DNA from: Candidatus Kapaibacterium sp.
GTDB lineage: Bacteria > Bacteroidota > Ignavibacteria > Kapaibacteriales > UBA2268
NCBI GenBank assembly: GCA_963665665.1
Contig: OY762428.1
Location: 1,152,001-1,216,000 of the forward strand
DNA: 64,000 bases
Direction: 5' to 3'
The translations under genes were made by a program, and so were the position numbers. Each line of letters opens with the position of its first letter. Position 1 is the stretch's first letter. Below are positions 1,661 to 57,611 of the stretch, in pieces. The notes beneath the pieces are model-generated. The model was not told the DNA's origin, did no database searches, and saw nothing but the letters and a program-made list of their open reading frames with translations.

Positions 1661-1750
1661 TATTTTTAAGTTTTTTTGATATTTTAAAAAACTTAGTATA
1701 TTATATTTAATAATTTTTATGGAATTTTCTGGTAAGTGCATATATAAATT

Positions 1751-2050
1751 ATGATAGAAGCCAAAAGAATAATCAACTATTTGATTTCGAATAAAGAACG
1801 ATTTCAAAAAGAGTACCATCTAACCAAGATAGGCGTTTTTGGTTCTATTGCCCGAAATGAATTTTCTGATGATAGCGATATTGATATTATTGTAGAATTT
1901 GAAGACAATGTTCAGGATTTATATTCTGTTAAAAAAAAGTTGCGGAATGAGATAAGTCAGCACTTCAATCGGCAGGTTGATATTTGCAGGGAAAGATATA
2001 TCAAATCAATATTGAAGAAACATATCATCGCCGAGGCAATATATGTTTAA
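1751..2050 (+). CDS. Minimal nucleotidyltransferase (MNT/MntA-type antitoxin)
   Basis: GVFGSIARNEFSDDSDIDIIVEF (GS-x10-DxD), 99 aa, C-terminal VDIC...EAIYV. Confidence 0.88.
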   Translation: MIEAKRIINYLISNKERFQKEYHLTKIGVFGSIARNEFSDDSDIDIIVEFEDNVQDLYSVKKKLRNEISQHFNRQVDICRERYIKSILKKHIIAEAIYV

Positions 2051-2114
2051 AACTTCTCATAAAGATTTTAGCTGTCTGCTAAATATTATAGAATCTTCAT
2101 CCATTGGAAATTGA
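2043..2114 (+). pseudogene. Probable truncated HEPN/DUF86 toxin remnant
   Basis: ATG overlaps the MNT end; MFKTSHKDFSCLLNIIES resembles HepT N-termini, but it stops after 23 codons with no RxxxxH. Confidence 0.5.
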
Positions 2115-2181
2115 AATACATAAAATAATAGATTGATTTGATCAAATCAATATTTCTATCTCTAAATCACAATACATAAAA

Positions 2182-2330
2182 ATCCCAACTACATCCCTTC
2201 CAAATCCAGATGAACGGAGCCCTGACGGAGTATTTGCGGATTGTCGCCGCTGATATCAAGTACGGTGGAAACAAGGCCAATCGGAGCAAAACCGGAATCG
2301 AAAACAGCGTCGATTATGCCATTTAAATTA
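2182..2330 (-). repeat. Diverged duplicate of the tsaC 3' end (direct repeat with 4471-4619)
   Basis: 2182-2315 vs 4471-4604: 7 mismatches in 134 bp; encodes ...IDAVFDSGFAPIGLVSTVLDISGDNPQILRQGSVHLDLEGM*. Confidence 0.95.
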
Positions 2331-4412
2331 TTCCTTAAATAAAGCAATATTATAACTTGCACTTAGTACAAATTCTCTTGACAAGCCTGGTAATGGCAAG
2401 GCATATCCGGTTGCATCAGAGGGAGAATGTGTTGAATTGTAATCTTTAAACGGCAGTGTATAATCCTCGTTTGTGTTCAAAATATCATAAGCTCCCAGGC
2501 CAATCCTGAAATTTTTTGCAGGGAAATCATTAATATTTATGAAAACATTCAAATATAGATCGGGGTCTGTTTTGGTATAATAACCATAATCAATATATGC
2601 TCTCTCGATATAATATGCATTTCTTGACGAAAGATAAATCAACGATGAATTGAGTGATATTTGATTTGTCAGGCTAATCCCGGCAAATATTTTTGCAGTA
2701 ATTTCAGGACTTTCAATTCCCCTGAGACAAAACGCACCTGCTTCGGCGGTATTATCAGGAATTAAAACAAATCCGTCGTTACTTTGGTAAGTCAGGCTAC
2801 CGTTTATATATCCCCATTCCGGCTTCCAGTTGTATTCCAGCTCAAATCCCTGAAAACCTGAATTTTGATAGTTCTCAAATCTGAGCATTCCTGCAGTGAA
2901 GATTGTGATCGGATTTTCTACTTGGGTATGGAAAATATTAGCCCTAACAAGCATATCGTCTGCAAATAAATATGAAGCGCCAAATTCAATTGTCTTGAAG
3001 GTCTCCGGTTCAATTTCAGATTCCATATCATTGTCAATATAATATCTCTGATTTGCTAAAGCTATCCCGGGAAAGTTCCGAGACTGACCGTACCCGACCC
3101 ATAAACTAATATCCCCAATATTCTTACTAACACTGACAGCCGGAGAAATAAAAGAGCCATATTTCTCGTAGTTATCAAAACGGGCTTCAATGTTAATATC
3201 TGCAATATAATTTTTATATGAAGCAGATCCGAAGAAACTGGAATTTGTATAATCAATTTCTTTTTTTCCGTTATTGAAAAGCAAATCATCTCTGTTTGCA
3301 TTGTCTGTGGCTTTATCATTGAATAATTCTCCACCGCATATAATCTCTATTCCGTCAATTGGTTTGTAGTTTATTTCAAGCCCACCCGTAATTCTTTCAA
3401 CAGAGCGATTATAAAAACATTGGTCAAGTAATTCGTAGTTAACATTTTCCCAGTTGTCCTGATAGGGATAGAACGGATTGAAATATTTATAGCTTATCTT
3501 TGGTTTCACTACCAGGTTATCAAGTATATCCATTGAATATCCGATATTGGCAATTATTGTTTTGGATTCAATTTTTATATCGTTCATAGTGGATATTGAA
3601 AAATTATTGGCGGCAGTTGATCTATAATAGTCATATATGAAATCAATATCAAAATCATATATTTCCGATTTTAGAATCAGAGACGCCGGGTCGCTATCAA
3701 TTTTGAAGTTGTCTTTTAATTGTTTGCCGGGATTATAGACAAACGTTTTCTGTGTATTATGGCCGTCGCCGGCGAAGGCATGCAAAGCAAATGAAATATT
3801 TTCCGATACTTCAACTCCAGCAGAGAATCCTGCATTTGTTCTTTTTAATTCGTTCGGAAATAAACTCGTAGTTATGTTGGCAGAAATACCGTCTAATTCT
3901 TTAGCGGCCTTTGTAATAATATTAATTGCCCCTACCGTGGAATTTTGACTTGTAACCGAAGCGCCTCTATAAACTTCCACTCTCTGAATACTATGGATAT
4001 TGAAGTGATTTCCATGCTGATAGGAAGAAAACAAAAGCTCATTAATTTCTATACCGTTTATCAATATCGGAATTCTGCCATATCCTGATTTAAAACCCCT
4101 ATAGCTTATATTTCGTACGCCATCGTTATTTATATCAAAGCTGTATCCGGGAACCATATTCAACACATCGGTTAAATCCCGACATCCTTGCATTTCAATA
4201 TCTTTGGCAGCAATTATTGTAATATTGCCATTTTCAGAATGAGTGATATTTGTTGCAACTGAAACAGTGGTATCCACTATGGTTGAAAAAGTAATTTCCG
4301 GATGAAATAGAAATAAAACTAAAATTATCAGCAAAACATTTCGGTTAATTTTTACATTCTTACAGATGAAATGAAATTGTTCCATAATCCAACCCTTAAT
4401 TTTTGAAAACAA
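2328..4412 (-). CDS. TonB-dependent receptor (plug + beta-barrel); start uncertain, possibly 4385
   Basis: Plug motifs DLTDVLNMVPG, ILINGIEIN, IQRVEVYRGA and GAINIITK; alternating beta-strand C-terminal part. Confidence 0.85.
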   Translation of the reverse strand: MFSKIKGWIMEQFHFICKNVKINRNVLLIILVLFLFHPEITFSTIVDTTVSVATNITHSENGNITIIAAKDIEMQGCRDLTDVLNMVPGYSFDINNDGVRNISYRGFKSGYGRIPILINGIEINELLFSSYQHGNHFNIHSIQRVEVYRGASVTSQNSTVGAINIITKAAKELDGISANITTSLFPNELKRTNAGFSAGVEVSENISFALHAFAGDGHNTQKTFVYNPGKQLKDNFKIDSDPASLILKSEIYDFDIDFIYDYYRSTAANNFSISTMNDIKIESKTIIANIGYSMDILDNLVVKPKISYKYFNPFYPYQDNWENVNYELLDQCFYNRSVERITGGLEINYKPIDGIEIICGGELFNDKATDNANRDDLLFNNGKKEIDYTNSSFFGSASYKNYIADINIEARFDNYEKYGSFISPAVSVSKNIGDISLWVGYGQSRNFPGIALANQRYYIDNDMESEIEPETFKTIEFGASYLFADDMLVRANIFHTQVENPITIFTAGMLRFENYQNSGFQGFELEYNWKPEWGYINGSLTYQSNDGFVLIPDNTAEAGAFCLRGIESPEITAKIFAGISLTNQISLNSSLIYLSSRNAYYIERAYIDYGYYTKTDPDLYLNVFININDFPAKNFRIGLGAYDILNTNEDYTLPFKDYNSTHSPSDATGYALPLPGLSREFVLSASYNIALFKE

Positions 4413-44025: not shown

Positions 44026-44784
44026 TTAAATTGATTTTATTGCATCCGATGGCAGCCAGCCGACGTCTCCGTTTGCAAGTTTTATTTTCAGCCATTCATT
44101 CACCTTATCAAGAACTTTTACTTTAGCGCCCTCGTGCAGGATGAAAAGATCAGTACTATTCTCATCGGGAGAGCTCTTCACGTAAACGTTAACTGCAAAT
44201 ACAACGCCGCCACTGTTATCATTTTCAATCTGATTCGACTGATATCCCAGGTATGTTGAAATCCCGAAAAGCACTATCATCATAAAAGCTCCGGCAAAAA
44301 GTATTTTTTTAATCGCAGGCGACCAGATAAACATGAACCCGACGAGCATAAGGAATGCAAGCCATATAAATATAACAGCCGAAACGGCCCATCCTGTTGA
44401 AGACATCATACCAATAAATGATTCAAGCCACTCGGTAAGGAAGAATTTCGGTACGGGTGGAATTTTATCAATAGTACGAAGCATTGCCACATTTCTGTTA
44501 AAATCAATATCCTCATCTCCGGGAGATAGTTTTGCCGCTTTTTCGAAATATAAAATTGTCTCCGGAATTTTCCTCAGCCTGTAATAACAATTACCCATGT
44601 TATAATACAGATCAGCGGATTCTATCCCGTTTTTTTCAAGTTGGCTGTATAATTCCAGAGCCTGGGAATATTTGCCATCACTATAAAGATCATTAGCTTT
44701 TTTGAATGTATCAGTATTGCTTTCCGCTAAAAGCGAAACAGTAGCAAGTATTGTTATCAATATTATTATCAATGTGTTTCTCAT
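44026..44784 (-). CDS. batE: BatE (TPR + SH3b) protein
   Basis: YYNMGNCYY TPR, 2 TM, LFILHEGAKV..W.KI.L..G.VGW; position in bat operon. Confidence 0.88.
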   Translation of the reverse strand: MRNTLIIILITILATVSLLAESNTDTFKKANDLYSDGKYSQALELYSQLEKNGIESADLYYNMGNCYYRLRKIPETILYFEKAAKLSPGDEDIDFNRNVAMLRTIDKIPPVPKFFLTEWLESFIGMMSSTGWAVSAVIFIWLAFLMLVGFMFIWSPAIKKILFAGAFMMIVLFGISTYLGYQSNQIENDNSGGVVFAVNVYVKSSPDENSTDLFILHEGAKVKVLDKVNEWLKIKLANGDVGWLPSDAIKSI

Positions 44785-46589
44785 TTTAACCAGCCCTCCA
44801 TGTCAGTTATCAATGAAGCCGCGTTATCATAGGTTTTCTGCATAGCGCCGCTCTCACCGGAAGGTGAATAGCGAGCAAACTCGCATTCGTCAATTGTTTC
44901 CATATACAGTTCTGCTTTTTCGAGTGATACTTTGCGTTTATGCAATTCCTCCAGGGCAACATCTTTATTCAGATCGGCAAATTGAATTCCAAGTTTATCA
45001 CTTAGATATCCCCAGAGAGCTTTACTTGTCTCTTCATAAAATTTATCCCTGTCGTTTGCCGTCAGATGTTTCTTCGCGGCTGACAATCTTGCTTTCGCAA
45101 CTTTTGTAGCTTTTTTATTTCTTAAAAGGCTTTGATTCCTATTTTCTTCCTCTCGTTTTTTCCTGAAGAAAAACAGGAGAAAAAACAATGGAACAGGAAG
45201 CAGGGTGAGAATAATAAAGCCGAAAGATCCGAAAAATGATGGTTCCGATTTTGCTAAATCTGATGCATCAGTTTTAATAAACCTGATATCTTTACCAAGG
45301 TATTTCACATTTTCTTTCCGCACCCCTTCAACAACAGCCGATGAAGTACCGCCTTTACCTTTTGTAACTTTAATAGTAAATGGTTCGGAAGTGAGTGTAA
45401 CATACTTCTTTTTATCCAGGTCGAAATAAGTAAATTCTACAGGTTCAATATCGAACTCACCCGGATTGCGGGGAATCAGTAAGTATTCAAAAGTTTTATT
45501 ACCCTTGAAGCCGCCTGCAGAAACAGAAAGATTATCGGATTCCTTGGGTTCGTAGGATTCAATATCCGGTGGTAATTCAACTGCTATAGGGTCAATCAAT
45601 TTGATATTACCACTGCCGCTGATTCGGATTTTCAGGCTAACAGGCTCATTGGATTTTGTTTCGGTTTTGTCCAGCCAGGCTTTCATTTCAAGCCGGCCAA
45701 CACCGCCTGCAAAACTTGCAGGAGGATTATCAGGAAGTGGTTTAACCGTTATCGAACCTGCCCTGGAACGCACGGTATGATCAAAATTCTTATAATTCCT
45801 TGATCCGAAGAATGATTCAAACGGATCGCGAGACCTGCGGCCACCGTTTACCTGAAGCTGAGCCACGGCATTAAGTTCAACAGGATCGATAGACAATTTT
45901 CCAACCTGTTGCGGCAGAAGCATAACTTTCTGAATAGTAACAGCCTCATAACGTACTCCGTCAAGTACTTCAGCCCGCCAGTTCTGCTTTGCCCCCAGGT
46001 CCTGAGCCCAGAATCCGTTGAAAGCAGGCATTTTAGGAAGATCAAGATCTGCAAGACGCAAATCGGGATGCTTGTATAATGTGTAAGTTACCATAACAGG
46101 TTCGCCAAGATACACGGTCTTTTTACTTTGGCTGAGCCTGACAAAAAGATTATCTGCAATTATTTTCCTTGCCTGGCTGGTTTGATCCTTTTCCTGCTGC
46201 TGTTTTGCTATCTGAGCCTTCGTCGGGTCTGTTACCCGGATAGTTATTGAATTCGATCTGACAGTTTTACCATCAACTTTTACCGTAGCAGGTTTTATTG
46301 TATAAGTTCCCTTTTTGGGTGCCTGCAGGACATAAGTAAATGATTTCGACTGGCTCATCCTGCCGTTTATAATACTCGTACTCGAGGATTGGCTGGGCCC
46401 CATCAATACTTTGAAAGGCGAAAAGCGTGGCGGGCTGAAATTTGAGCCGTTCCCTTCAATATTAAAAGTCAATTGGAATCTTTCACCCTGCGATACCGGA
46501 TTCTTGCTGACCGATGCCGTGAATTTCGCGGCAAATAAATTGGTCAGAGCCAGTGTAAATATTACTAATATTAATGATAATCTTTTCAT
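44781..46589 (-). CDS. batD: BatD oxygen-tolerance family protein
   Basis: GPSQSSSTSIINGR, F.GGVG, DIRFIK, late TM and CEFARYSP. Confidence 0.9.
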   Translation of the reverse strand: MKRLSLILVIFTLALTNLFAAKFTASVSKNPVSQGERFQLTFNIEGNGSNFSPPRFSPFKVLMGPSQSSSTSIINGRMSQSKSFTYVLQAPKKGTYTIKPATVKVDGKTVRSNSITIRVTDPTKAQIAKQQQEKDQTSQARKIIADNLFVRLSQSKKTVYLGEPVMVTYTLYKHPDLRLADLDLPKMPAFNGFWAQDLGAKQNWRAEVLDGVRYEAVTIQKVMLLPQQVGKLSIDPVELNAVAQLQVNGGRRSRDPFESFFGSRNYKNFDHTVRSRAGSITVKPLPDNPPASFAGGVGRLEMKAWLDKTETKSNEPVSLKIRISGSGNIKLIDPIAVELPPDIESYEPKESDNLSVSAGGFKGNKTFEYLLIPRNPGEFDIEPVEFTYFDLDKKKYVTLTSEPFTIKVTKGKGGTSSAVVEGVRKENVKYLGKDIRFIKTDASDLAKSEPSFFGSFGFIILTLLPVPLFFLLFFFRKKREEENRNQSLLRNKKATKVAKARLSAAKKHLTANDRDKFYEETSKALWGYLSDKLGIQFADLNKDVALEELHKRKVSLEKAELYMETIDECEFARYSPSGESGAMQKTYDNAASLITDMEGWLK

Positions 46590-46624
46590 AATACCGATTC
46601 AATATTGATTGACAATAGTTGAAA

Positions 46625-47437
46625 TTACCAGTTCTTTTCAAGTTTTCTTTTATTACCTTTTTTCTTTTGCAGTTTTTTCAGAACATTTTTCTCATCCCTT
46701 TGCAATGCCTGGAGAATCCTGCGCGCTTCCTCGTCAGAGATTTTTTGATCTTTTCTTTCTCCCTGCTGAGCCTGCTGCTGGTCTTTCTTGTCTCCCTGCT
46801 GCTGTTGCTGCTGCTGCTGCTCTTTTTTATCCTGGTTTTGCTTGTCCTGATTTTGCTGCTGCTGGTCCTGTTTATCTTTATTCTGGTCTTTTTTATCCTT
46901 ATTCTGCTGATCTTTGTTCTGTTGGTCTTTGTTTTGATCTTTATTCTGGTCTTTTTTGTCCTGATCTTTCTGATCCTTATTCTGCTGTTGCTGCTGTTGT
47001 TGTCTCATTTTTTCAAGGGCATACTGAAGGTTATATTTCGTATCCATATCTTTGGGATTAAGTTTCAATGCATTTTTATATGCATCTATACTTTCCTTGT
47101 ATTTCTGCGCCTGTAAAAAAGAGTTCCCAAGATTATGAAATACTTTTGCTTTAGTATCATCATCAAGGTTGAGATTTGATACATTGGCAAAATGTTTTGC
47201 AGCATCCTCGTAATTTCCCTGCTTATAAATAGCGTCGCCCAGGTTGAAGGAACCTTTAGTATTCAACGGGTCTTCCTCCAAAGCCTTTCGGTATTTTATT
47301 TCCGCTTCATTGTATTTTTTTTCTTTATACTGCTTGTTGCCTTCGCTGATCTGGCTTTTTACTTCGTCAGCTTCGGCATAAGAAAACAGAATAAAAATTG
47401 ATAATAACACAGGAACAAATATTTTCATTTTACTCAT
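46625..47437 (-). CDS. batC: BatC TPR protein with Q/D/K-rich linker
   Basis: GNKQY..KKY.EAE..YRKAL, FNLG, HNLGN, low-complexity linker, C-terminal EKNW; start moved to MSKMK. Confidence 0.9.
   Translation of the reverse strand: MSKMKIFVPVLLSIFILFSYAEADEVKSQISEGNKQYKEKKYNEAEIKYRKALEEDPLNTKGSFNLGDAIYKQGNYEDAAKHFANVSNLNLDDDTKAKVFHNLGNSFLQAQKYKESIDAYKNALKLNPKDMDTKYNLQYALEKMRQQQQQQQNKDQKDQDKKDQNKDQNKDQQNKDQQNKDKKDQNKDKQDQQQQNQDKQNQDKKEQQQQQQQQGDKKDQQQAQQGERKDQKISDEEARRILQALQRDEKNVLKKLQKKKGNKRKLEKNW
46770..47005 (-). repeat. Low-complexity coding repeats (poly-Q, KDQNK units) in batC
   Basis: Imperfect 15-bp units and CAG/CAA runs. Confidence 0.8.
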
Positions 47438-48494
47438 TTTCTTCCCTCCTTTGATTACCACCTGCAAATACATTTAGTGCTGTCAGGTATTTGTTTCTCT
47501 TGTCGGAAACAACAAATTCAAAAACAATAAATACCAGCGCTGCCGCTATCGGATATTGGAATCGGTCTTCATATTCGGTAAACATTTTGGACCCGTATTC
47601 CTTCTTTTCCATTTTATCAATATCCTGAAGCAGTTTTTCCAGGTCCGGATCAGGGCCGTCGGCGCTGATAAACCTTCCGTTTCCGGCTGCTGCAACCTGC
47701 TGAAGCATTCCTGGATCAAGTTTAGTCAGAATGGTCTCCCCGTATTTATCTTTTCTGAATCCAACCCTGTTACCGCCTTTGTAAATCGGAATTGGCGCGC
47801 CACCGGCCGAACCCATTCCTATTGTATGAATAACTACTCCCTGCTCGGCGGCTTTTTTGGCAGTACCAAGGGCATCATCTTCATGATTCTCGCCGTCAGT
47901 AATAATAATCAGGACTTTATGCTTCTCATCATCCTTCTCGAAAGCGCTTAAAGCCGTTTCGATAGCACCACCAAGGGCTGTTCCCTGTGTTTCTATCATA
48001 TCCGTATCGATTGTTGACAGCAGAAGCTTTGCGGCACTGTAATCAGTTGTTAAAGGAAGCTGCATGAAGGATGTTCCAGCAAAAGCCACAATACCAATAC
48101 GGTCATTTCTTAACTTATCAATTAGCCTTGAAATTGATTTCTTTGCCCTTTCAAGCCTGCTTGGCTTTATGTCTTCGGCTTCCATACTATTTGATACGTC
48201 AAGGGCAATTACTACATCAACACCCTCTCTTTTTACTTCCTCCATCTTGGAACCTATCTGCGGATTGGCAATACCGAGAACGATAAATAATATCGTAATC
48301 ATAAGAAGAACAAACCTGAACCAGGGCTTGAATCGGGATACATCCGGCTGGAGCCGCCTTATAAGCCTTGTTTCACCATACTCTTCCATCAGTTCCCGCC
48401 TTCTGTGGCGAACAAAAATAAACAACAGAATGAAAAAGGGTATTAATGCCAATCCATAAAGGAAAACATCGTTTTCAAATCTGAATATGTCCAT
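47430..48494 (-). CDS. batB: BatB VWA-domain protein
   Basis: ANPQIG, DVSNSM MIDAS, PLTTDY, TDGENHE and DRFQY motifs. Confidence 0.92.
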   Translation of the reverse strand: MDIFRFENDVFLYGLALIPFFILLFIFVRHRRRELMEEYGETRLIRRLQPDVSRFKPWFRFVLLMITILFIVLGIANPQIGSKMEEVKREGVDVVIALDVSNSMEAEDIKPSRLERAKKSISRLIDKLRNDRIGIVAFAGTSFMQLPLTTDYSAAKLLLSTIDTDMIETQGTALGGAIETALSAFEKDDEKHKVLIIITDGENHEDDALGTAKKAAEQGVVIHTIGMGSAGGAPIPIYKGGNRVGFRKDKYGETILTKLDPGMLQQVAAAGNGRFISADGPDPDLEKLLQDIDKMEKKEYGSKMFTEYEDRFQYPIAAALVFIVFEFVVSDKRNKYLTALNVFAGGNQRREENE

Positions 48495-48654: not shown

Positions 48655-48681
48655 TGTAACCAAACAGGATTTTCAAACGAC
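48655..48681 (+). promoter_or_regulatory. Putative ECF autoregulatory promoter TGTAAC-N17-CGAC
   Basis: AAC -35 and CGAC -10 typical of ECF promoters, immediately upstream of the ECF gene. Confidence 0.6.
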
Positions 48682-48687
48682 ATCCTG

Positions 48688-49266
48688 ATGTATTTGGAAT
48701 TAAGAGAATTGAAAATGGATAATCCGGATTATACAAAGCAATTTTTTGACTTACTTGAACCGGTTTACAGAAAACTGGAAAGGTTCGCCCTGGCAATTTC
48801 GCGGGATGAACATCAGGCAAAGGACATTGTAAGCGAAACTGTGCTTACAGCTCATGCCGGCTTCTCGAAATTGAGAAACAAACAAGCCTTCCTCAGTTTT
48901 CTGTTTACAATAGCAAGGCGGGCTGTCGTGAATGAATTTAGAAAAAACAGGCCTGACAGGTTTGACTATGAAATCGAACCCGACAACTTTGCTAAAGATT
49001 CAATGCTTCCTGACGTAAGGACTGATATCACCCTGCTGAGAGAGGCAATTAATAAGTTGAAAACTAAGGACAGGGAAGCAATTGTTCTTTATGAAATAAG
49101 CGGTTTTTCCGTGAAAGAACTTGCTGACATTCAGAATTGCTCGCTAACAGCAGCAAAAGTGAGGCTGTTCAGGGCAAGAAAAAAACTGGCCGGAATTCTC
49201 GGTGTTCCGGATATTAAAAAGAATGAAACAATAACCTTACAGGCTGGCGCCGGAGGTAAAATATGA
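48688..49266 (+). CDS. ECF-family RNA polymerase sigma factor (start 48688 or 48715)
   Basis: Region 2 AKDIVSET...FLSFLFTIARR; region 4 REAIVLYEISGFSVKELA...KVRLFRARKKL. Confidence 0.93.
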   Translation: MYLELRELKMDNPDYTKQFFDLLEPVYRKLERFALAISRDEHQAKDIVSETVLTAHAGFSKLRNKQAFLSFLFTIARRAVVNEFRKNRPDRFDYEIEPDNFAKDSMLPDVRTDITLLREAINKLKTKDREAIVLYEISGFSVKELADIQNCSLTAAKVRLFRARKKLAGILGVPDIKKNETITLQAGAGGKI

Positions 49267-51227
49267 AAAACAAAAAAAATCTACAGACATATTTGAATAA
49301 ATTGAATAGTGAAATAGACAACAAAAGTCTTTTCACGCAAGATGAACTCCATGGATTAATTAGTGAAAACAGCGGTACCGCGACAAAAAGCAATAGAACT
49401 TTTAAAACAGGAAAATTTAAAATGATAACAAATTCGGGAATTTTTAAAATGTTAAGTATATCAGCTTTAATTGTCGCAGCAGCATCCTTCCTGACTTTCA
49501 ATGGTTTCTTTGGCTCGGGAAGCAACAATGAAAACACGGAAACCGGACCAACGGTAAAAATTCCGATAATCAAATTGTCGGAAAGCGAATTAAAAAAAAT
49601 TGGAATCACAAAAATTGAAAATGGCTACAGCTTTTTATCCCAAAGTTGCGCGGACGGCGCTGAAAGCTATGAGAAGGAAATGCTTATAAAGGGATACCCG
49701 TCCAATGACGATGAAGATATATTTCGTTCAACTGAAATACTGACCTTCACGAAAAAAGAATACTTTGATATGAGTGGCGGTATGATAGACTATGCTGGCT
49801 GGGATTTAAGAAAGCCATCTCCGATAATGCCCTTGGGGCTGAATTTTACTTATCATACTTCTGGCGGATGTGGTTCCGGCAGTTCATGCTTTGGATTTGC
49901 ACCTCTTATTGAGGAAAGAAGAGATTTCTTCAGAGAGATCGGTGATTTCTTTACCATTAAATTTATTAAACCAAAAATTAATCCCGAAGAAATTGAATTT
50001 CTTACTATAAATACAGAGAAAAATCCATACGCAGCTCAGATAATACCTGTATTTATTCCATTCTATGACGAAGACGGAAACAGGGGCGATTGCATACTGT
50101 GGTATCTGCCAACGCCGGAATTCGTTGATATGCTGCCCGAAAGATATTCTTCATATATTAGAGAAAATTTGAACATCATATCTTATCTTGAAGATACCGG
50201 CAGTGGCGACTTGGAGATAAAACCCGAAATGAACATGAATTACCAAAATCAAAAGGAAATTGCAGGTATTAAATATATTGAACTGAGTGAAAATGAATTA
50301 CTGCAATTGAATATCAGGTATAAAGACAATTCATGGCTGATACCGGCAAGACATCAGGAAGTTAAAAAATCCGAAACTGATGGGGCACTGCTTTCGGAAC
50401 TGAAAAAATCAGGTATTTCAATCAGCAGGGCAGTCCTGAATTTTGATGAAGTAATTTCTGCCGGCTTAAAAGAAAACAATACGGAATATATTTCATTTGA
50501 TAATAGTAAAACCAAAATTTTCCCTCTTGTAATATCATCATTAGGAAAGTTTTGGAACTACAGAAAAGATATCGACTACTGGGAACCGGCTTCGAGGCAG
50601 TCTGTAATTACCCTTCTTGACGAATATAAATCAGACGATGAAGAAATAAAGGCTGTAAATTCAGTAATTAAGAACAATGCGCTTAATTCAATCGCCGGAA
50701 TTGAAAATTTAATCAATGTCAGGATTTTAAAAAACTATTCTTCACCTGATGATAAAAAGCACCCTGTAATTCATGAAATAAACCTCTGGTATGAGATCAC
50801 TCCCGAATTCATCAACGCATTGCCGGACCGATACAAAGTACCATTATCAAAAGAGTTCAATATAATGAAGAAAATTGAGCAGGGAACTATCAAACCGGAA
50901 AAAGCCTGCGATGAATTGAATAATGATACTAGCTATATGAACGTATGCGAGACAGCAGCAGCAAAAGAATTCAAGCTCCTTGTTTCCCCTAACCCGGCTA
51001 CGGATAAAATTACAATAGGATTTCATCTTCCGGAAGCCTCAGGTATAAGTCTGGGATTGTACGAAATTACCGGTAATAAAATTATGGACTTCATTCCATT
51101 CGATAATATGAGTGCCGGCATTCATGATAGAAACTTCAACCTGAATGGTTTGAGTCAGGGAGTTTACCTGCTGATTCTAAAACTGGAAAACGGCAAAACT
51201 GCAATGAAAAAACTGATCATACAGTAA
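49263..51227 (+). CDS. Membrane-anchored putative anti-sigma factor with duplicated extracytoplasmic domain and T9SS CTD
   Basis: ATGA overlap with sigma, GGAGG RBS; about 60-aa polar N-terminus, one hydrophobic helix, two internal repeats; VSPNPATD...GVYLLIL...KKLIIQ CTD. Confidence 0.75.
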   Translation: MKNKKNLQTYLNKLNSEIDNKSLFTQDELHGLISENSGTATKSNRTFKTGKFKMITNSGIFKMLSISALIVAAASFLTFNGFFGSGSNNENTETGPTVKIPIIKLSESELKKIGITKIENGYSFLSQSCADGAESYEKEMLIKGYPSNDDEDIFRSTEILTFTKKEYFDMSGGMIDYAGWDLRKPSPIMPLGLNFTYHTSGGCGSGSSCFGFAPLIEERRDFFREIGDFFTIKFIKPKINPEEIEFLTINTEKNPYAAQIIPVFIPFYDEDGNRGDCILWYLPTPEFVDMLPERYSSYIRENLNIISYLEDTGSGDLEIKPEMNMNYQNQKEIAGIKYIELSENELLQLNIRYKDNSWLIPARHQEVKKSETDGALLSELKKSGISISRAVLNFDEVISAGLKENNTEYISFDNSKTKIFPLVISSLGKFWNYRKDIDYWEPASRQSVITLLDEYKSDDEEIKAVNSVIKNNALNSIAGIENLINVRILKNYSSPDDKKHPVIHEINLWYEITPEFINALPDRYKVPLSKEFNIMKKIEQGTIKPEKACDELNNDTSYMNVCETAAAKEFKLLVSPNPATDKITIGFHLPEASGISLGLYEITGNKIMDFIPFDNMSAGIHDRNFNLNGLSQGVYLLILKLENGKTAMKKLIIQ

Positions 51228-51260: not shown

Positions 51261-51291
51261 ACCCGGGATAATTTATTCCGGGTTTTCTTTT
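51261..51291 (+). terminator. Terminator after the sigma/anti-sigma pair
   Basis: acccgggataa-t-ttattccgggt followed by a T-rich tail. Confidence 0.6.
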
Positions 51292-51402: not shown

Positions 51403-53886
51403 ATGTCAGGTATAAAAAACAATCCGGAAAAAATTGATATGACTAAAAATATTGTTCCTGTTGCAAAGCTTAAATGGAAATGTCCGGCTTCAAAATTAAA
51501 ATTAAAATCAACTGAAGAAATTGAACCGCTTGATAAAATCGTTGGCCAGCCGCGAGCTATTAATGCATTGAAATTAGGCTCGGAATTATTTTCGAAAGGT
51601 TATAATATTTTTGTTTCCGGTATATCAGGTACCGGCAGGCTTACCACTGTAAAAAAACTATTGCAAAAGGTATCCACACATAACCCCGACCTGTTTGACT
51701 ACTGCTACGTGTATAATTTCAGCGCACCGGACCACCCGAGATTATTAAAACTAAAGAAAGGCGAGGCCTGTAAATTCAGAACCGCTGTTGAAGAAGCCGT
51801 TACATTTACCAAAAGACGCCTTCCCAAACTTTTTGAGGATGAAAATTTCAGAAGGAACAGGCAAAAAATAATTGAAGATTACCAGGAAAAAGAAAGGCAA
51901 ATATTAAATAAGTTCGATAAAAAAATTGAGCCTTTCGGATTTATAAGGGGCCAGATTGAAAATGAGAACGGAACCACACAGCCTGAAGTATTTCCGATTA
52001 TAAACGAAAAACCTATTCAAATCGAAGATATTGACCAGTTTGTTGAATCGGGTGATATTGATATTAACATTGCAAATGAAAAAAGAGAATTATACAGGAA
52101 ATTTCACAACGAAATATTTGATATTGCCCGCAAAGGTATGAAACTGATGCAGGAATTCCGCCGGGCAATATCCAAAAGTGATAAAAAAGCTGCATCTGTG
52201 GAAGTTGAAGCCGCCTTTGACGAAATACCCGATAATTTTAATTACCCTGAAATAGAGATATTTATTAATGAAGTAAAGGATCATATTCTTGATAATCTAA
52301 GCGTTTTTGTACCTTCAACCAACCCTTTCCCGCAGCTGTCGGATAACGGCAAAACCAATGTTGAAGATCATTTACACCTGTTCAATGTTAATATTGTTCT
52401 CGACAACTCATCTACATCTGCCGCACCGGTTGTGATTGAAACAACCCCATCATATAATAACTTGTTTGGAACTATCGAAAGAATTCTCGATTCACGGGGA
52501 TTCTGGAGGTCGGATTTCACAAAGATAAAAGCAGGTTCGATTCTAAAAGCAGATCAGGGCTACCTGATTGTCAGCGCTGGCGACCTGTTTTCGGAGCCCG
52601 GCGTATGGCAGGCGTTAAAAAGAGTGCTTTTATATGATAAATTGGATGTACAGCCACTTGATTCGTATTTCAATTTATCGCAGACTCATTTGAAACCGGA
52701 ACCAATAAAAGTAAATGTTAAAGTTATCATTATAGGCGGGCAAACGCTTTATAGGATGCTCTACCTGCATGAGAAAGGATTTAAGAAAATTTTCAAAATC
52801 AATGCTCAATTTGATTATGAAACCAGGCGAACTGATGACATGATTGAGCATATCAGCCGGTTTATCGCTAAAATATGCAGGGATGATAATCTTTGTCCGT
52901 TTGCCCGTGACGGAGTTGCATCAATTGTAGAGTGGGCTATTGCTCATGCCGGCAGCCAGGAAAGAATTACCCTGAAATTCTCAGACATTGCAGATATTAT
53001 AAGGGAATCAGCCTATGCATTCAAAAATTCAGGAGATAAGGATTTTATTACTTCCATTCATGTAGACAGAGCAATTAAAGAAAGACGCTTCCGGAACGAC
53101 CTGGTTGACGAAAAGGTTAAGCACCACATTCTAAACGGCAATACTTTTATTGATACAGAAGGCAGCAGGATAGGACAGATTAACGGCCTTACAGTTTATG
53201 ATACCGGCCTGCTGTCATTTGGCAAACCTGCCAGGATAACCTCCACAATTTCTGCAGGAAATGCGGGAATTGTTAATATCGAACGCGAAGCTGATATGAG
53301 CGGAACAATACACAACAAAGGTGTTCTGATTATCACAGGGCTGCTTCAGGAACGATTTGCTTATAAACATCCCTTGTCATTAACAGCATCAATTGCTTTT
53401 GAACAGTCTTATGGAGGTATTGACGGAGACAGTGCCTCGGCTGCAGAGATTTATGTCCTGCTCTCAGCCCTGACAAATACTCCGATCAAGCAGGACCTTG
53501 CAATTACAGGTTCGGTTAACCAAAAGGGAGACATTCAGCCTATTGGCGGAGTAAATGAGAAAATCACCGGGTTCTTCGAGATTTGCAGGGACAGAGGCCT
53601 TACAGGAAAGCAGGGAGTAATAATTCCATCTCAAAATGTGAAAGACCTGATGCTGACAGACGATATCCTAAACGCAGCAAAGAAAAAGAAATTTTTTATC
53701 TATTCAATCGAAAAAATTGAAGACGGAGTACCACTGCTAATGGGAATAGAAGCCGGAATAAGAGGCAATGACGGTTCTTATCCCAAACAAAGCCTGTTTG
53801 GGCTGGCAGAAAGAAAACTTGAAGAGTATTATAAGCTATCGCGAAATATTAAGGACAAAAATTCGAAAAAGAAAAAAAACAGTTAA
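51403..53886 (+). CDS. Lon-family protease, LonC/AAA_32-like
   Basis: GQPRA, DYCYVYNF..P..P, GQINGL, EQSYGGIDGDSAS (catalytic Ser) and TGSVNQKG..QPIGGVNEKI (Lys). Confidence 0.92.
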   Translation: MSGIKNNPEKIDMTKNIVPVAKLKWKCPASKLKLKSTEEIEPLDKIVGQPRAINALKLGSELFSKGYNIFVSGISGTGRLTTVKKLLQKVSTHNPDLFDYCYVYNFSAPDHPRLLKLKKGEACKFRTAVEEAVTFTKRRLPKLFEDENFRRNRQKIIEDYQEKERQILNKFDKKIEPFGFIRGQIENENGTTQPEVFPIINEKPIQIEDIDQFVESGDIDINIANEKRELYRKFHNEIFDIARKGMKLMQEFRRAISKSDKKAASVEVEAAFDEIPDNFNYPEIEIFINEVKDHILDNLSVFVPSTNPFPQLSDNGKTNVEDHLHLFNVNIVLDNSSTSAAPVVIETTPSYNNLFGTIERILDSRGFWRSDFTKIKAGSILKADQGYLIVSAGDLFSEPGVWQALKRVLLYDKLDVQPLDSYFNLSQTHLKPEPIKVNVKVIIIGGQTLYRMLYLHEKGFKKIFKINAQFDYETRRTDDMIEHISRFIAKICRDDNLCPFARDGVASIVEWAIAHAGSQERITLKFSDIADIIRESAYAFKNSGDKDFITSIHVDRAIKERRFRNDLVDEKVKHHILNGNTFIDTEGSRIGQINGLTVYDTGLLSFGKPARITSTISAGNAGIVNIEREADMSGTIHNKGVLIITGLLQERFAYKHPLSLTASIAFEQSYGGIDGDSASAAEIYVLLSALTNTPIKQDLAITGSVNQKGDIQPIGGVNEKITGFFEICRDRGLTGKQGVIIPSQNVKDLMLTDDILNAAKKKKFFIYSIEKIEDGVPLLMGIEAGIRGNDGSYPKQSLFGLAERKLEEYYKLSRNIKDKNSKKKKNS

Positions 53887-55520: not shown

Positions 55521-57611
55521 ATGAAGACCGTAAAACTTTTATTTTTGGCAATATTTTTTCCGTCATTCTTATTTGCACAATACTCCGGTGGTAATGGTTC
55601 TTCAGATAACCCTTACAAATTATCTACTTGTGCTGATCTTGAAAAGCTTATGAATAGCAATTCTGATTGGAACAAGCATTTTATAATGACATCGAATATT
55701 GATCTATCCGGCTACACGCCAACTCAGGGTGGTATTAAACCAATTGGAGATGGTATCTCGGATTTCTCTGGCAGTTTTGACGGGCAATCCAAATGTATAT
55801 CAAATCTTGCAATAAATACTTCGTCTAATTCCTACGTCGGACTATTTGCTTGTACTGCTTCATCAGCAACAATTACTGATTTGTCACTTCAGAATATCAA
55901 TATTACCGGCAATAAGCGTATAGGCGGTCTTGTTGGTGAAAATTTTGGCATTGTGACAAATTGTTCCTCCAACGGAATAGTTTCAGGAAATGAACATACA
56001 GGCGGACTAATTGGTTACAATTATGGCTCTGTATCTAATTGTGATTTCACAGGTTCAGTTTCCGGAAAATCTGAAGTTACTGGCGGATTGGTTGGTTTTA
56101 ATAGCCGTTTTAATGGGTATGTGAGCAATTGTTATTCGGGAGGAACTGTTTCGGGAACATCCCATGTAGGGGGATTGATTGGTTATAATGATACTTTTGT
56201 AAGTAACTGCTATTCAACAAGTACTGTATTGGGAAGCTTAATATACACAGGCGGATTAATTGGAAGTAATCGTTCTACTGTAAGTTCTTGTCATTCTTCA
56301 GGTAACGTTGTCGGGATTGGCGAATATGTTGGCGGATTAATTGGTGCAAATGATTATGGTAGTGTTGAATTCTGTTATTCCACAGGTAATGTGACAGGTG
56401 ATGCCTATGTTGGCGGATTAATTGGTGAAAATATTGATGGTAGTGTTGATTTCTGTTACTCCACAGGTAATGTGACAGGTAGTTTAACGCGCTCTTATTA
56501 TACCGGCGGATTGATTGGCTATCATGAAGACGCTGAAGTAAGTAATTGCTATTCTACCGGAGATGTGACAGGATTATATTTTTCAGGCGGTTTTATAGGC
56601 CAAAATTATGGTGTTGTTGACAAATGTTATTCAACCGGAAGCGCTTCCGGTAGTTATGCCGGTGGTTTGATTGCTGATAATATTGGCCGGGTAAGAAATA
56701 GTTTTTGGGATACAGAAACTTCAGGAAATACTACAAGCTCCGGTGGCACCAGCAAAACTTCTGCTCTGATGAAAACACAATCTACATTTACCGGAGCCGG
56801 ATGGGATTTTACAAATGATTGGGCAATTTGCCAGGGATATCCTGAATTAATACACAACAGGCCAAAAAATACAGAGGCAGTATATATAAATAGCTCATAC
56901 ACTGAGGGCAGCACCGGAGGATATGTTTACAATTGTAATGCATTTTCAAATATTGAAAATGCAAAAGAAGTGCTTAGCCCTGGTGGTAAAATTTATATTT
57001 TTGGTAACTACGATTTTGAAACAGACCCTTCTCTTGATGGTTATCAAATTTATATTTCCGGATCCATCCTAAATGCTGACGAAGATAATTTTTTTAATCT
57101 TGGCAGTACCGGGTCGCTGACTCTTTCCACTGCAAGTCCTGTAACTTTTCCCGTCGGAACGGACGTAGTCGGCTACGCTCCTGTAGTAATTAATGCACCG
57201 TCCAGCAACACTTTTACAGTATCAATTACTGATAGCACATCGAATTATCTTGCCAAGGTATTCTATTCAAAATGCTGGTGGGATATTGAACACACAGGTG
57301 GTAACGATCCGACAGATATTGATTTCGTATATAATAAATCATTGTTTACACGCAGTAATCCGTTAAAGGCAAGTTATGTGCTGCACTTTGATGAACAATG
57401 GGAGAATCTCACTCCGGACGGAGCTGCTACTTTGGGCAATTGGAATGGGGACGAAAATTATTTCTGTACCAGTATAACCAATGTTTCTTCGTTTTCTCCA
57501 TTCTCAGTACACTTTCTGCCAAAAATTCCTTCTGTTTCGGTATGGGCTTTGATTATTCTTGGAATAACACTTGCTATAAGCGGTGGATGGATTTTGTGGA
57601 AAAGGTTTTAA
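55521..57611 (+). CDS. GLUG-motif surface protein with IPTL-CTERM-like C-terminal anchor
   Basis: YSGGNGS..NPY start, about 9 GGL(I/V)G.N...V.NCYSTG repeats, SFWD.ETSG; tail IPSVSVWALIILG...WKRF. Confidence 0.85.
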   Translation: MKTVKLLFLAIFFPSFLFAQYSGGNGSSDNPYKLSTCADLEKLMNSNSDWNKHFIMTSNIDLSGYTPTQGGIKPIGDGISDFSGSFDGQSKCISNLAINTSSNSYVGLFACTASSATITDLSLQNINITGNKRIGGLVGENFGIVTNCSSNGIVSGNEHTGGLIGYNYGSVSNCDFTGSVSGKSEVTGGLVGFNSRFNGYVSNCYSGGTVSGTSHVGGLIGYNDTFVSNCYSTSTVLGSLIYTGGLIGSNRSTVSSCHSSGNVVGIGEYVGGLIGANDYGSVEFCYSTGNVTGDAYVGGLIGENIDGSVDFCYSTGNVTGSLTRSYYTGGLIGYHEDAEVSNCYSTGDVTGLYFSGGFIGQNYGVVDKCYSTGSASGSYAGGLIADNIGRVRNSFWDTETSGNTTSSGGTSKTSALMKTQSTFTGAGWDFTNDWAICQGYPELIHNRPKNTEAVYINSSYTEGSTGGYVYNCNAFSNIENAKEVLSPGGKIYIFGNYDFETDPSLDGYQIYISGSILNADEDNFFNLGSTGSLTLSTASPVTFPVGTDVVGYAPVVINAPSSNTFTVSITDSTSNYLAKVFYSKCWWDIEHTGGNDPTDIDFVYNKSLFTRSNPLKASYVLHFDEQWENLTPDGAATLGNWNGDENYFCTSITNVSSFSPFSVHFLPKIPSVSVWALIILGITLAISGGWILWKRF
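56325..56480 (+). repeat. 81-bp-period tandem duplication within the GLUG repeats
   Basis: 56325-56399 and 56406-56480 are nearly identical at DNA level. Confidence 0.85.

Follow-up and report, generated by a model that had tools for sequence, protein, structure and literature searches.

What does a type IX secretion system (T9SS) sorting domain do at the end of a protein that is encoded directly behind an ECF sigma factor? The question is raised by a two-gene unit in the window, the whole 64,000-nucleotide stretch of Candidatus Kapaibacterium sp. DNA analysed here, in which an ECF sigma ORF (48688-49266, + strand) is followed by the gene of a 654-residue partner (49263..51227, + strand). A sequence-only reading had taken the partner for an anti-sigma factor tethered to the inner membrane, whose distal end might be engaged or exported by the T9SS and might in this way control release of the sigma factor. 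We therefore ask whether the partner is the anti-sigma factor of its neighbour, and what its sorting domain would then be for.

Results

The sigma and partner genes form a compact unit

The product of the first ORF carries sigma regions 2 and 4 only, within the size of about 170-200 aa that defines ECF sigma factors. It matches Sigma70_r2 (PF04542, 44.1 bits), Sigma70_r4_2 (PF08281, 54.1 bits) and NCBIfam TIGR02937 (70.9 bits, cut-off 42.9), and a profile of 23 of its relatives matches solved ECF sigma factors with E down to 1.7e-28. It scored below the cut-off of all named NCBIfam ECF families (for example NF058625, 74.3 bits vs 130). Translation probably begins at ATG 48715 (MDNPDY) instead of 48688, because the alignment of the 23 relatives begins near residue 10 of the window ORF and because the putative -10 element would place the transcript start at ~48692. 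As noted from the sequence alone, the sigma stop and the partner start overlap (ATG 49263-49265 over TGA 49264-49266, giving ATGA), and the same 4-nt overlap is found in 13/19 loci of a family locus set. The GGAGG proposed as the ribosome-binding site is indeed present (Table 1); it is not kept in the four paralogs of this genome.

Upstream of the sigma gene, a family motif TGTAACC(TTTT)-N16-17-CAC(T/A)TAC is present in 13 of 19 loci with a score of at least 15/19, above the maximum of 14 among 380 shuffles. The window's own site was found by regular expression only and did not beat the shuffles under this scoring; its -10, read from the sequence, agrees with the family consensus at 5/7 positions. 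Downstream of the partner gene, a terminator-like hairpin may mark the end of a two-gene operon, and the pair is flanked by one promoter-like site and one such hairpin. The operon is probably self-regulated. Across the genome, matches to the promoter motif were not in excess of those in reversed-genome controls (9 vs 12, 8 vs 4 and 42 vs 91), and no sigma regulon linking to the T9SS or to T9SS cargo was found in these scans.

Table 1. Features of the two-gene unit, in window coordinates.
Feature	Position	Strand	Basis or remark
-35-like element TGTAACC, family ECF-type promoter	48655..48661	+	family motif; window site by regex only
-10-like element GACATCC	48679..48685	+	17 nt past TGTAACC; weakly supported on its own
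ECF sigma factor ORF	48688..49266	+	Pfam r2 + r4_2, TIGR02937; probable true start ATG 48715
GGAGG	49252..49256	+	6 nt 5' of partner ATG
Partner gene, 654 aa, candidate anti-sigma factor with T9SS CTD	49263..51227	+	ATGA overlap
Residues 1-37, two-helix cytoplasmic domain (H4-18, H26-35), predicted sigma-binding part	49263..49373	+	AF2, complex model
Residues 59-79, predicted single transmembrane helix, N-terminus inside	49437..49499	+	hydropathy, AF2, charge
Residues 97-302, first copy of unnamed alpha/beta module	49551..50168	+	AF2; motifs IPIIKLSESELKKIGI and LWYLPTPEFVDMLPERY
Residues 338-540, second module copy, family's conserved core	50274..50882	+	AF2
Residues 545-569, helical neck with conserved C549/C562	50895..50969	+	conservation, AF2
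Residues 575-653, T9SS type A C-terminal sorting domain	50985..51221	+	PF18962, TIGR04183, Foldseek
Terminator-like hairpin and T run	51261..51283	+	10 pairs, 5 of them G-C; tail TTTCTTTTGA

The partner combines a predicted membrane-anchored N-terminus, a family-specific module and a sorting domain

The polar N-terminus followed by one hydrophobic helix, as first read from the sequence, was recovered by hydropathy (residues 1-58 polar, Kyte-Doolittle maximum 1.95 at 59-77) and by the AlphaFold2 (AF2) model, which has a helix at 59-79. The first 62 residues contain 11 K+R and 5 D+E. An internal start at MITNS would instead leave a signal-peptide-like N-terminus, but this start is used in one public gene call only, for a 96% identical protein. 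The long start is the real one, since conservation of the first ~40 residues (family consensus MKxxLxxYxxxA...ExR) extends through the 5 paralogs and 110 of the 150 best database matches. These 110 relatives have a polar N-terminus and a hydrophobic segment that begins at residue 35-85, with an uncharged run of median 20 residues and a net charge of +3.0 before and -0.7 after it (positive-inside). The segment, which is as long as a membrane anchor, is thus predicted to be a membrane helix with the N-terminus in the cytoplasm. A polar linker follows it in the family (median 111 aa, quartiles 72-200, in 93 relatives). In the window protein only about 17-23 residues separate the helix from the first module, so that its periplasmic reach depends on the two folded modules.

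The two copies of one domain noted earlier were borne out. A LWY..PEF..LP.RY stretch aligns with itself (E 6e-07, 14/32 identical) and AF2 builds two modules; BLAST did not pair the first proposed motif pair, IPIIKLSESELKKIGI / IKYIELSENELLQLNI, in register; each of the two fits the family motif IxGIxxLELTxxELxxLGI. Besides the sorting domain (CTD), the family module is the most conserved part of the protein (W509, F516, L520, P521, Y524 and E531), together with the C-x12-C pair seen earlier, C549/C562. Conservation of each cysteine is 90% or more among 60 relatives and complete in a set of 12, and the two may form a disulfide. No Pfam family matched the module, a single-module AF2 model (pLDDT 77.4) had 0 matches in the PDB at E <= 0.001 (best probability 0.21), whole-protein Foldseek gave worthwhile matches to the CTD only, and the Atlas held no usable match for the module.

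The C-terminus is the canonical sorting domain that it had been taken for: PF18962 scores 40.1 bits (cut-off 27) over residues 575-653 and TIGR04183 30 bits (cut-off 23), and Foldseek matches the CTDs of mirolase (8qb1_A) and RemA (8gl6_D) with probability 1.00 each. The domain is present in all 4 paralogs, where it passes the curated T9SS-specific models, and it is kept in 59/60 relatives, in every case at the very end of the protein. Among the T9SS components, SprA (956.6 bits) and PorU (853.4 bits) are encoded in the genome, with a PorV-like gene adjoining PorU (164 + 79 bits, below cut-off), and there are at least 150 Pfam CTD matches; the GldM model had no match in the genome and was equally silent in all controls. 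Among the cargo CTDs of the genome, that of the window protein is mid-range (43.5 bits in the cargo list), and in a FastTree of 278 CTD tails it falls among cargo CTDs.

We also considered the family CTDs as a separate kind. A family-built CTD model scores the five of them at 84-95 bits, vs a maximum of 59.8 for the other 273 tails, yet the FastTree of the 278 tails groups only 4/5 (support 0.85, with one outsider) and places the window CTD elsewhere, which gives no clear answer.

Sigma factor and partner are inherited together

Five pairs of an ECF gene and a CTD-bearing partner occur in this genome, all of the same build and with sigma factors of one clade. The genome has 30 ECF genes that score over cut-off, and CTD tails end 278 of its 4501 frames of 150 aa or more; about 2 such neighbours would be expected by chance. 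The check suggested earlier, whether homologs always follow an ECF gene, came out in favour of linkage: the sigma gene lies directly upstream, on the same strand, in 31/31 assessable loci, drawn from this genome and from Ignavibacteria/Kapabacteria-labelled MAGs (the 5 own loci, L002, 18/19 of one locus set and 7/9 new loci; three further loci, cut by contig ends, stand outside the count). Around these 31 loci, only a DUF1573 gene recurs as a neighbour (8/31, and absent from the window), and no T9SS gene is a conserved neighbour. In a sigma tree, all 23 CTD-linked sigma factors and one more form a single 24-row clade (support 100/100, stem length 1.97), separate from the genome's other 24 ECFs. 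Sigma factor and partner are inherited together as one clade, and the operon belongs to an undescribed clade in Ignavibacteria/Kapabacteria-type genomes.

The family comprises 237 clusters at E <= 1e-10 in a 50% identity library, with up to five copies per genome. These were found by exhaustive search; a word-indexed homolog search gave 1 match among 7999 scored candidates, a limit of that method. Loci were searched with a 12-row partner alignment, as no stretch of the 60-row alignment was conserved enough. A phylum-wide genome search with the full alignment was swamped by CTD matches and gives no family count; among the matches listed, those extending beyond the CTD were in genomes G000, G077 and G081 only. 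A single-query search with the module without its CTD found, class-wide, at least 21/201 genomes and at least 7/100 genera, a lower bound since the known members G077 and G081 were missed.

The one clade member without a CTD is the partner on L055, whose C-terminus has outer-membrane beta-barrel proteins as its nearest Atlas clusters (score 0.94-0.95, a lead only). That the distal module of the family is exchangeable is likewise a lead only. No outer-membrane-barrel family was found in Pfam or NCBIfam for the partners on L054, L055, L056 and L057, and the L055 partner was not similar to the L054 partner by BLAST. One relative has a TonB_C match; this relative lay outside the set of 10 long members that were rescanned.

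The partner is very probably the cognate anti-sigma factor

When the sigma factor was modelled with the partner N-terminus, the complex reached an ipSAE of 0.84, against 0.00 for the best control; the mark is attained by 58/80 solved complexes and by 2/110 mismatched pairs. Three runs had at least 71% of contacts in common, with a partner pLDDT of at least 64, and placed partner residues 5-37 between sigma region 2 (16-56) and region 4 (113-176). From this model, the cytoplasmic domain is predicted to bind both regions. In sequence, the 58-aa N-terminus resembles no chain of solved structure (best E 0.41), so that the model is unlikely to have passed by having memorised this chain; solved ECF/anti-sigma complexes are numerous, and memorisation may have helped the sigma side of the prediction.

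Class I anti-sigma domains have four helices in about 80-90 aa, often with HxxxCxxC, and are covered by Pfam zf-HC2 or RskA. Residues 1-58 of the partner matched no such domain (ZAS or RskA-type) in Pfam or NCBIfam, their model has two helices only, and no Cys occurs in the first 128 residues. In the literature, no description was found of an ECF group with such a partner. Altogether, the five pairs, the 31/31 linkage, the single sigma clade, the conserved N-terminus and the complex model make it very probable that the partner is the cognate anti-sigma factor of the adjoining ECF sigma.

Discussion

Relation to known systems

CnrY, the partner of CnrH (solved chain 4cxf_A, among the matches to known structures), is a class II anti-sigma factor. 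The partner described here resembles it in its very short predicted sigma-binding domain, with two helices, no zinc site and contacts to regions 2 and 4, followed by one membrane helix, but its N-terminus has no detectable sequence similarity to any solved chain. Little of CnrY lies in the periplasm, and it acts together with CnrX, whereas the partner described here has an ectodomain of about 500 residues that ends in a CTD. In the FlgM / sigma-28 checkpoint, a soluble anti-sigma factor is exported whole via the flagellar type III apparatus. The likeness to FlgM is one of logic only, that of an anti-sigma factor bearing an export signal, through which the status of a machine could set sigma activity; the partner is predicted to be anchored in the inner membrane, and the T9SS takes its cargo from the periplasm. 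With ordinary T9SS type A cargo, the partner shares a CTD above both curated cut-offs, in a genome with SprA and PorU; here, however, a conserved 58-aa cytoplasmic domain and a helix of anchor length appear to replace the N-terminal signal peptide.

The initial statement that no described system has this architecture stands in so far as none was found, but two published systems, Dma and PorA, are close in design. According to the available part of the Dma paper, in which the T9SS has 0 mentions, Dma anti-sigma factors are dual membrane-spanning, end in a C-terminal eight-stranded outer-membrane beta-barrel and are partnered with sigma group ECF21; 40 N-terminal residues of Dma1 suffice for sigma binding, and its linker is disordered (PMC10927553). 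In Dma as here, sigma factor and anti-sigma factor share an operon in which the ECF gene comes first, and the second gene encodes a short N-terminal sigma-binding region (here predicted), one inner-membrane helix, a long periplasmic connector (in the window protein, mostly folded modules) and a distal module that belongs at the outer membrane. One member of the sigma clade, on L055, has a partner with a barrel-like end in place of a CTD, a lead only. The distal end here is, however, a type A sorting beta-sandwich and not an eight-stranded barrel, a folded family-specific module stands ahead of it, and the sigma factors are a clade of their own. The family helix also lies at about residue 50-60, vs about 90-100 in the barrel-type-looking partners of this genome.

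The PorA-PorY/PorX-SigP pathway of Porphyromonas gingivalis likewise uses a sorting domain as a periplasmic signalling element with an ECF sigma as its output (PMC7712824, PMC12152298). As described in the available sections, the PorXY-SigP cascade is switched on when the PorA CTD binds periplasmically to PorY, and PorA tethered to the inner membrane still signals and is not transported to the surface (PMC12152298). PorA differs in that it is a free cargo with a cleaved signal peptide and acts by a two-component route, SigP being under PorX and not under an anti-sigma factor (PMC7712824, PMC12152298), whereas the CTD here lies within the anti-sigma polypeptide itself.

A proposed docking tether and its rivals

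We favour a reading in which the anti-sigma factor is a periplasm-spanning tether that docks on outer-membrane parts of the T9SS, and give this proposal as a whole a probability of roughly 45%. The short two-helix N-terminal domain would hold the sigma factor at the inner membrane in a class II-like manner; the protein would cross the membrane once and span the periplasm by its linker and/or one or two copies of the family-specific module. Its distal end, taken as a genuine type A sorting domain, would dock, from within the periplasm, on the SprA translocon or a shuttle of the PorV type, and the anti-sigma factor would thereby signal in what state, or how heavily loaded, the secretion machine or outer membrane is. 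When this changes, the tether may be cleaved and the stub degraded by intramembrane proteolysis, which would set the sigma factor free. The long polar linkers of the family, which resemble the disordered linker of Dma1, speak for a tether, and PorA, which still signals when tethered, is a published precedent.

The main rival is release coupled to export. That the anti-sigma factor is itself a T9SS substrate, with the translocon pulling on the sorting domain so that a cut in the tether is exposed or caused, the ectodomain exported and the sigma factor freed, strikes us as rather unlikely. In its FlgM-like form, which we consider unlikely, the ectodomain would be true T9SS cargo. Signal peptidase or a site-1 protease would sever it from its anchor, perhaps not until the CTD is pulled by the translocon, and it would then be exported; the stub would be degraded to free the sigma factor, whose activity would be a report of successful secretion. 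The CTD fits such a role, being canonical, over the curated cut-offs, mid-range among cargo CTDs and among these in the 278-tail tree, as does a small-residue stretch VAAAS, read by eye within the hydrophobic segment. There is precedent, as far as the available parts of the sources go, in the site-1 cleavage of RsiP by signal peptidase (PMC8844934) and in Dma1, which is processed and of which only C-terminal pieces depart with vesicles (PMC10927553). On the other hand, the uncharged segment has the length of an anchor (median 20 residues) and not that of a signal-peptide core, the long polar linkers (median 111 aa) would be needless for a simple cut and export, and tethered PorA is not exported, so that release would have to precede export (PMC12152298).

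It is improbable, though less so than the last reading below, that the protein is an ordinary single-pass anti-sigma factor whose module senses a periplasmic or envelope cue, the CTD being merely a structural Ig-like beta-sandwich with no T9SS role. The module is the most conserved part apart from the CTD (W509, F516, L520, P521, Y524, E531 and the Cys pair) and, as a conserved folded unit, suggests a ligand sensor that may act without the T9SS. Neither the conserved neighbours nor the promoter-motif scans tie the family to the T9SS, and CTD-like beta-sandwiches are a common fold. The sensor-like module and the missing links to the T9SS also weigh against the tether, as do a sigma binding that is predicted by modelling and the short stretch behind the membrane helix of the window protein. 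However, the window protein and all 4 paralogs pass models specific to the T9SS, the CTD is retained in 59/60 relatives at the extreme C-terminus, where a sorting signal must be, and the family occurs in genomes rich in T9SS cargo (here at least 150 CTDs, SprA and PorU).

Least of all do we expect the partner to be no anti-sigma factor but a sigma-dependent protein, secreted or at the surface, that has an unusually long signal anchor and is co-transcribed with its regulator. In favour of this, 'T9SS type A sorting domain-containing protein' and 'hypothetical protein' are the only names that relatives bear in public records (4/23 listed cluster members named), one gene call at an internal Met gives a signal-peptide-like N-terminus, and no anti-sigma family known to Pfam or NCBIfam was matched by the N-terminus. 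Against it, the N-terminal ~40 residues are conserved, cytoplasmic by charge and predicted to lie between sigma regions 2 and 4, the linkage is 31/31, mostly with overlapping stop and start codons, and sigma factor and partner are co-inherited.

Implications

These records are an annotation trap, as the public names follow the sorting domain alone and at least one gene call drops the predicted sigma-binding N-terminus. The family is readily testable, being a two-gene unit with a recognisable promoter. If the anti-sigma factor is a T9SS substrate, this would be a type IX secretion checkpoint comparable to FlgM export in flagella, and the five paralogous pairs could be five such channels in this genome. 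A widespread family that carries the secretion tag on the anti-sigma polypeptide would wire the T9SS to transcription more directly than anything so far, and it would widen the recent idea, derived from Dma, that single polypeptides which extend from cytoplasm to outer membrane serve Bacteroidota-type bacteria as signal lines.

An ECF sigma gene overlaps the gene of a putatively membrane-anchored protein with a T9SS sorting domain

In the two-gene unit, the sigma stop codon shares bases with the start codon of the 654-aa partner, and GGAGG lies 6 nt 5' of that ATG. The sigma ORF scores 70.9 bits against TIGR02937 (cut-off 42.9) and stays under cut-off with all named NCBIfam ECF families. The partner begins with 58 polar residues and a single hydrophobic helix (residues 59-79), followed in its AF2 model (mean pLDDT 79.6, pTM 0.68) by two alpha/beta modules (97-302 and 338-540), a helical neck holding C549 and C562, and a beta-sandwich (573-653). 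The C-terminal sorting domain (CTD) passes both PF18962 (40.1 bits, cut-off 27) and TIGR04183 (30 bits, cut-off 23), and Foldseek matches it to the mirolase and RemA CTDs of known structure. These data confirm what the sequence-only reading had described: an ECF gene overlapping, with GGAGG, the start of a membrane-anchored partner composed of a polar N-terminus, one helix, a repeated unnamed domain, a cysteine pair and a T9SS CTD.

Features of the window and of other fetched loci
Feature	Sequence	Position	Strand	Remarks
Row of membrane-protein ORFs	window	44026-48494	-	includes the 282-aa ORF
282-aa ORF	window	46625-47473	-	C-terminal half a long Q, K, D, N run (QQQQQQNKDQKDQDKK...)
Promoter-like site, TGTAACC	window	48655-48661		regex match
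Promoter-like site, GACATCC	window	48679-48685		regex match
ECF sigma factor ORF	window	48688-49266	+	Pfam Sigma70_r2 + Sigma70_r4_2, TIGR02937; TGA 49264-49266
Partner ORF	window	49263-51227	+	654 aa; ATG 49263-49265
Terminator-like hairpin	window	51261-51283		closing end of two-gene unit
LonB/LonC-like AAA+ protease	window	51403-53886	+	827 aa; PF13654 142 bits, Lon_C 42.7 bits; 120 nt past hairpin, 176 nt past partner stop
696-aa ORF	window	55521-57611	+	many GGLIG-type repeats; hydrophobic C-terminal segment, no CTD
DUF1573/HYDIN-like Ig gene	L002 (same-order genome)	2438-3259	+	PF07610, 89.3 bits; directly 3' of partner
CTD-less partner	L055 (own genome)	1018-2274	-	418 aa
Its sigma	L055	2271-2897	-	
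Partners of 380-463 aa (examples)	L054 (own genome)	1428-2639	+	
	L056 (own genome)	2891-4282	-	
	L057 (own genome)	1473-2759	+	

The pair is conserved and its sigma factors form one clade

A pattern search across one genome for each species yielded 19 loci, in MAGs whose titles name Ignavibacteria, Kapaibacterium or the like. A same-strand ECF gene lies directly upstream in 18/19, with a 4-nt stop/start overlap in 13 of these 18; the nineteenth has merely 247 nt of upstream DNA. The pair is arranged identically in L002. A class-wide search gave 20 further regions, 11 of them duplicates of earlier loci and 9 new, among which the sigma gene was directly upstream in 7 and contig ends cut the other 2. 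Whether homologs always follow an ECF gene, a question raised by the sequence-only reading, can be answered affirmatively for all 31 assessable loci (31/31), the five pairs of this genome included. Matches to a single-sequence query without the CTD occurred in 7/100 genera and 21/201 genomes of the class, both lower bounds because this query misses members found by profile.

The genome itself holds 30 ECF genes above cut-off and about 278 frames with a CTD (at least 150 by Pfam), from which one or two chance neighbours are expected. We observed five ECF genes whose downstream neighbours, 522-662 aa long, share one build (polar N-terminus, helix near residue 52-59, CTD); all four paralog partners pass PF18962, and their N-termini can be aligned (MK..L..L....s.dEl..li). 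In a maximum-likelihood tree of the genome's 30 ECFs and 18 partner-linked sigmas of other genomes, 23/23 CTD-linked sigmas and one extra form a single clade with 100/100 support and a long stem (1.97).

Sigma genes of the family are preceded by a promoter motif, TGTAACC(TTTT)-N16-17-CAC(T/A)TAC, scoring at least 15 of 19 in 13/19 loci (no score above 14 in 380 shuffles). The window site did not outscore shuffles under the scoring used for the 19 loci; its use would place the sigma start at ATG 48715, and relatives of the window sigma begin at the matching position. Genome scans for further sites of the motif gave no excess over controls. Self-regulation of the operon through this promoter is probable.

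As for neighbouring genes, DUF1573 genes occur directly downstream of the partner in 8/31 loci (L002, L033, L034, L043, L062, L068, L070 and L077), the window not being one of them. The LonB/LonC-like protease gene is not a conserved neighbour in the loci compared.

The partner N-terminus is predicted to bind sigma

With an E-value cut-off of 1e-3, an exhaustive protein search found 2672 partner relatives; 237 remain at a cut-off of 1e-10, and 22 at 1e-30. Among the best 150, a hydrophobic segment starts at residue 35-85 in 110, earlier in 6 and is missing in 34, mostly short pieces; in the 110, the uncharged run has a median of 20 residues, and the preceding 15 residues carry a net charge of +3.0, against -0.7 beyond the run. 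The six early-segment matches include the public protein P0003 (601 aa, 96% identical), which starts at the internal MITNS, its gene call leaving out the 53-residue N-terminus predicted to bind sigma. A true start at MITNS had been considered earlier as an objection, but the long N-terminus is kept in the paralogs and in those 110/150 relatives; the P0003 start is a gene-calling choice and no evidence for a signal peptide.

The complex suggested by the sequence-only reading was modelled from sigma residues 10-180 and partner residues 1-58, with a separate alignment for each chain. It reached an ipSAE of 0.84, a level attained by 58/80 solved complexes and 2/110 mismatched pairs, versus 0.00 in the top-scoring one of three controls; runs had at least 71% of contacts in common and a partner pLDDT of at least 64. 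Two helices of the partner (residues 5-37) are modelled as lying between sigma regions 2 (16-56) and 4 (113-176), and the model supports sigma binding by the partner N-terminus. The window sigma has sequence relatives among solved chains, and the 58-residue N-terminus has none there (best E 0.41). Being short, cysteine-free and two-helical, this N-terminus differs from class I anti-sigma domains and is similar to those of class II, for example CnrY. Altogether, linkage, clade, N-terminus and complex model lend good support to the anti-sigma part of the sequence-only reading, and we regard it as very probable that the partner is the cognate anti-sigma factor; the T9SS-coupling part is plausible.

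Ectodomain and distal modules

The core module of the family is marked by IxGIxxLELTxxELxxLGI and LWYxPTxEFxxALPxRY...KEL...AC...CR. It belongs to no Pfam family (60 relatives gave PF18962 in 59, TonB_C in one, FlgD_ig in one and nothing else) and matched no PDB fold. A typical relative has a single module behind a polar linker (median 111 aa, quartiles 72-200). Two strict LWY motifs occur in 4/111 proteins, including the window partner, whose linker is short. The TonB_C domain (PF03544, E 8.1e-18), found in a relative outside the 10 long members rescanned, is another domain that touches outer-membrane proteins from the periplasmic side.

The extra clade sigma (genome position 2134399) is paired with a protein that shares the family type of N-terminus and lacks a CTD. 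Among Atlas clusters, those closest to the last 190 residues of this partner carry outer-membrane beta-barrel names (score 0.94-0.95, a lead only); neither Pfam nor NCBIfam recognises a barrel in it. Given this CTD-less partner with barrel-like nearest clusters, the distal module of the family may be exchangeable between barrel and sorting domain.

Most other ECF genes of the genome (about 20 loci) are followed by 380-463-aa partners with an LxDGEL-type N-terminus, a membrane helix near residue 90-100 and a C-terminus in which an alternating pattern leads up to an aromatic residue (...YGISYNLK, ...GVIFKF). The barrel-ended Dma anti-sigma factors are similar to this large paralogous expansion; for the L054, L056 and L057 partners, neither Pfam nor NCBIfam assigns a barrel family, the matches being weak zf-HC2 and anti-sigma ones.

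A possible role for the sorting domain

The genome encodes SprA (956.6 bits) and a PorU sortase (853.4 bits) adjoined by a PorV-like gene scoring under cut-off; the GldM model found no match, and was equally silent in all control genomes. Dma1 binds sigma through its 40 N-terminal residues, spans the periplasm with a disordered linker and ends in an outer-membrane barrel (PMC10927553). In P. gingivalis, the PorXY-SigP cascade is driven by the CTD of PorA, which binds PorY on the periplasmic side; PorA tethered to the inner membrane keeps signalling but loses export (PMC12152298). In length, the family connector suffices to bridge the periplasm, as in Dma1. The CTD is retained across the family, at the extreme C-terminus. 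CTD retention, the long connector and the PorA precedent together favour a periplasm-spanning, tethered anti-sigma factor whose CTD would dock on T9SS outer-membrane parts (probability roughly 45%, docking included), with proteolysis as the step that would release sigma.

The main rival couples release to export, the ectodomain being cleaved and then secreted; we consider it unlikely. A simple sensor of ligands, its CTD idle, would suit the unnamed ectodomain module; it is rather improbable in view of CTD retention. That the partner is cargo and no anti-sigma factor is very improbable given the linkage and the complex model.

A proposed envelope-spanning anti-sigma factor with a secretion tag

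Full-text searches on anti-sigma factors, T9SS, ECF and C-terminal domains found no description of this architecture, and searches combining ECF, anti-sigma and Ignavibacteria found nothing. ECF sigma with Por_Secre_tail led only to a Cytophaga T9SS review. In its main text, the paper re-classifying ECF sigma factors mentions no T9SS, Ignavibacteri or Chlorobi (PMC7826278). An existing ECF group with this partner, which the sequence-only reading had allowed for, was found in neither these full-text searches nor that main text.

What would distinguish the family is an envelope-spanning anti-sigma factor using a secretion tag where others have a barrel, and a link between the window pair and the T9SS is plausible. 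Publicly, relatives are named 'T9SS type A sorting domain-containing protein' or 'hypothetical protein'; P0003 as called looks like common cargo with a signal peptide, a pitfall in annotating this family.
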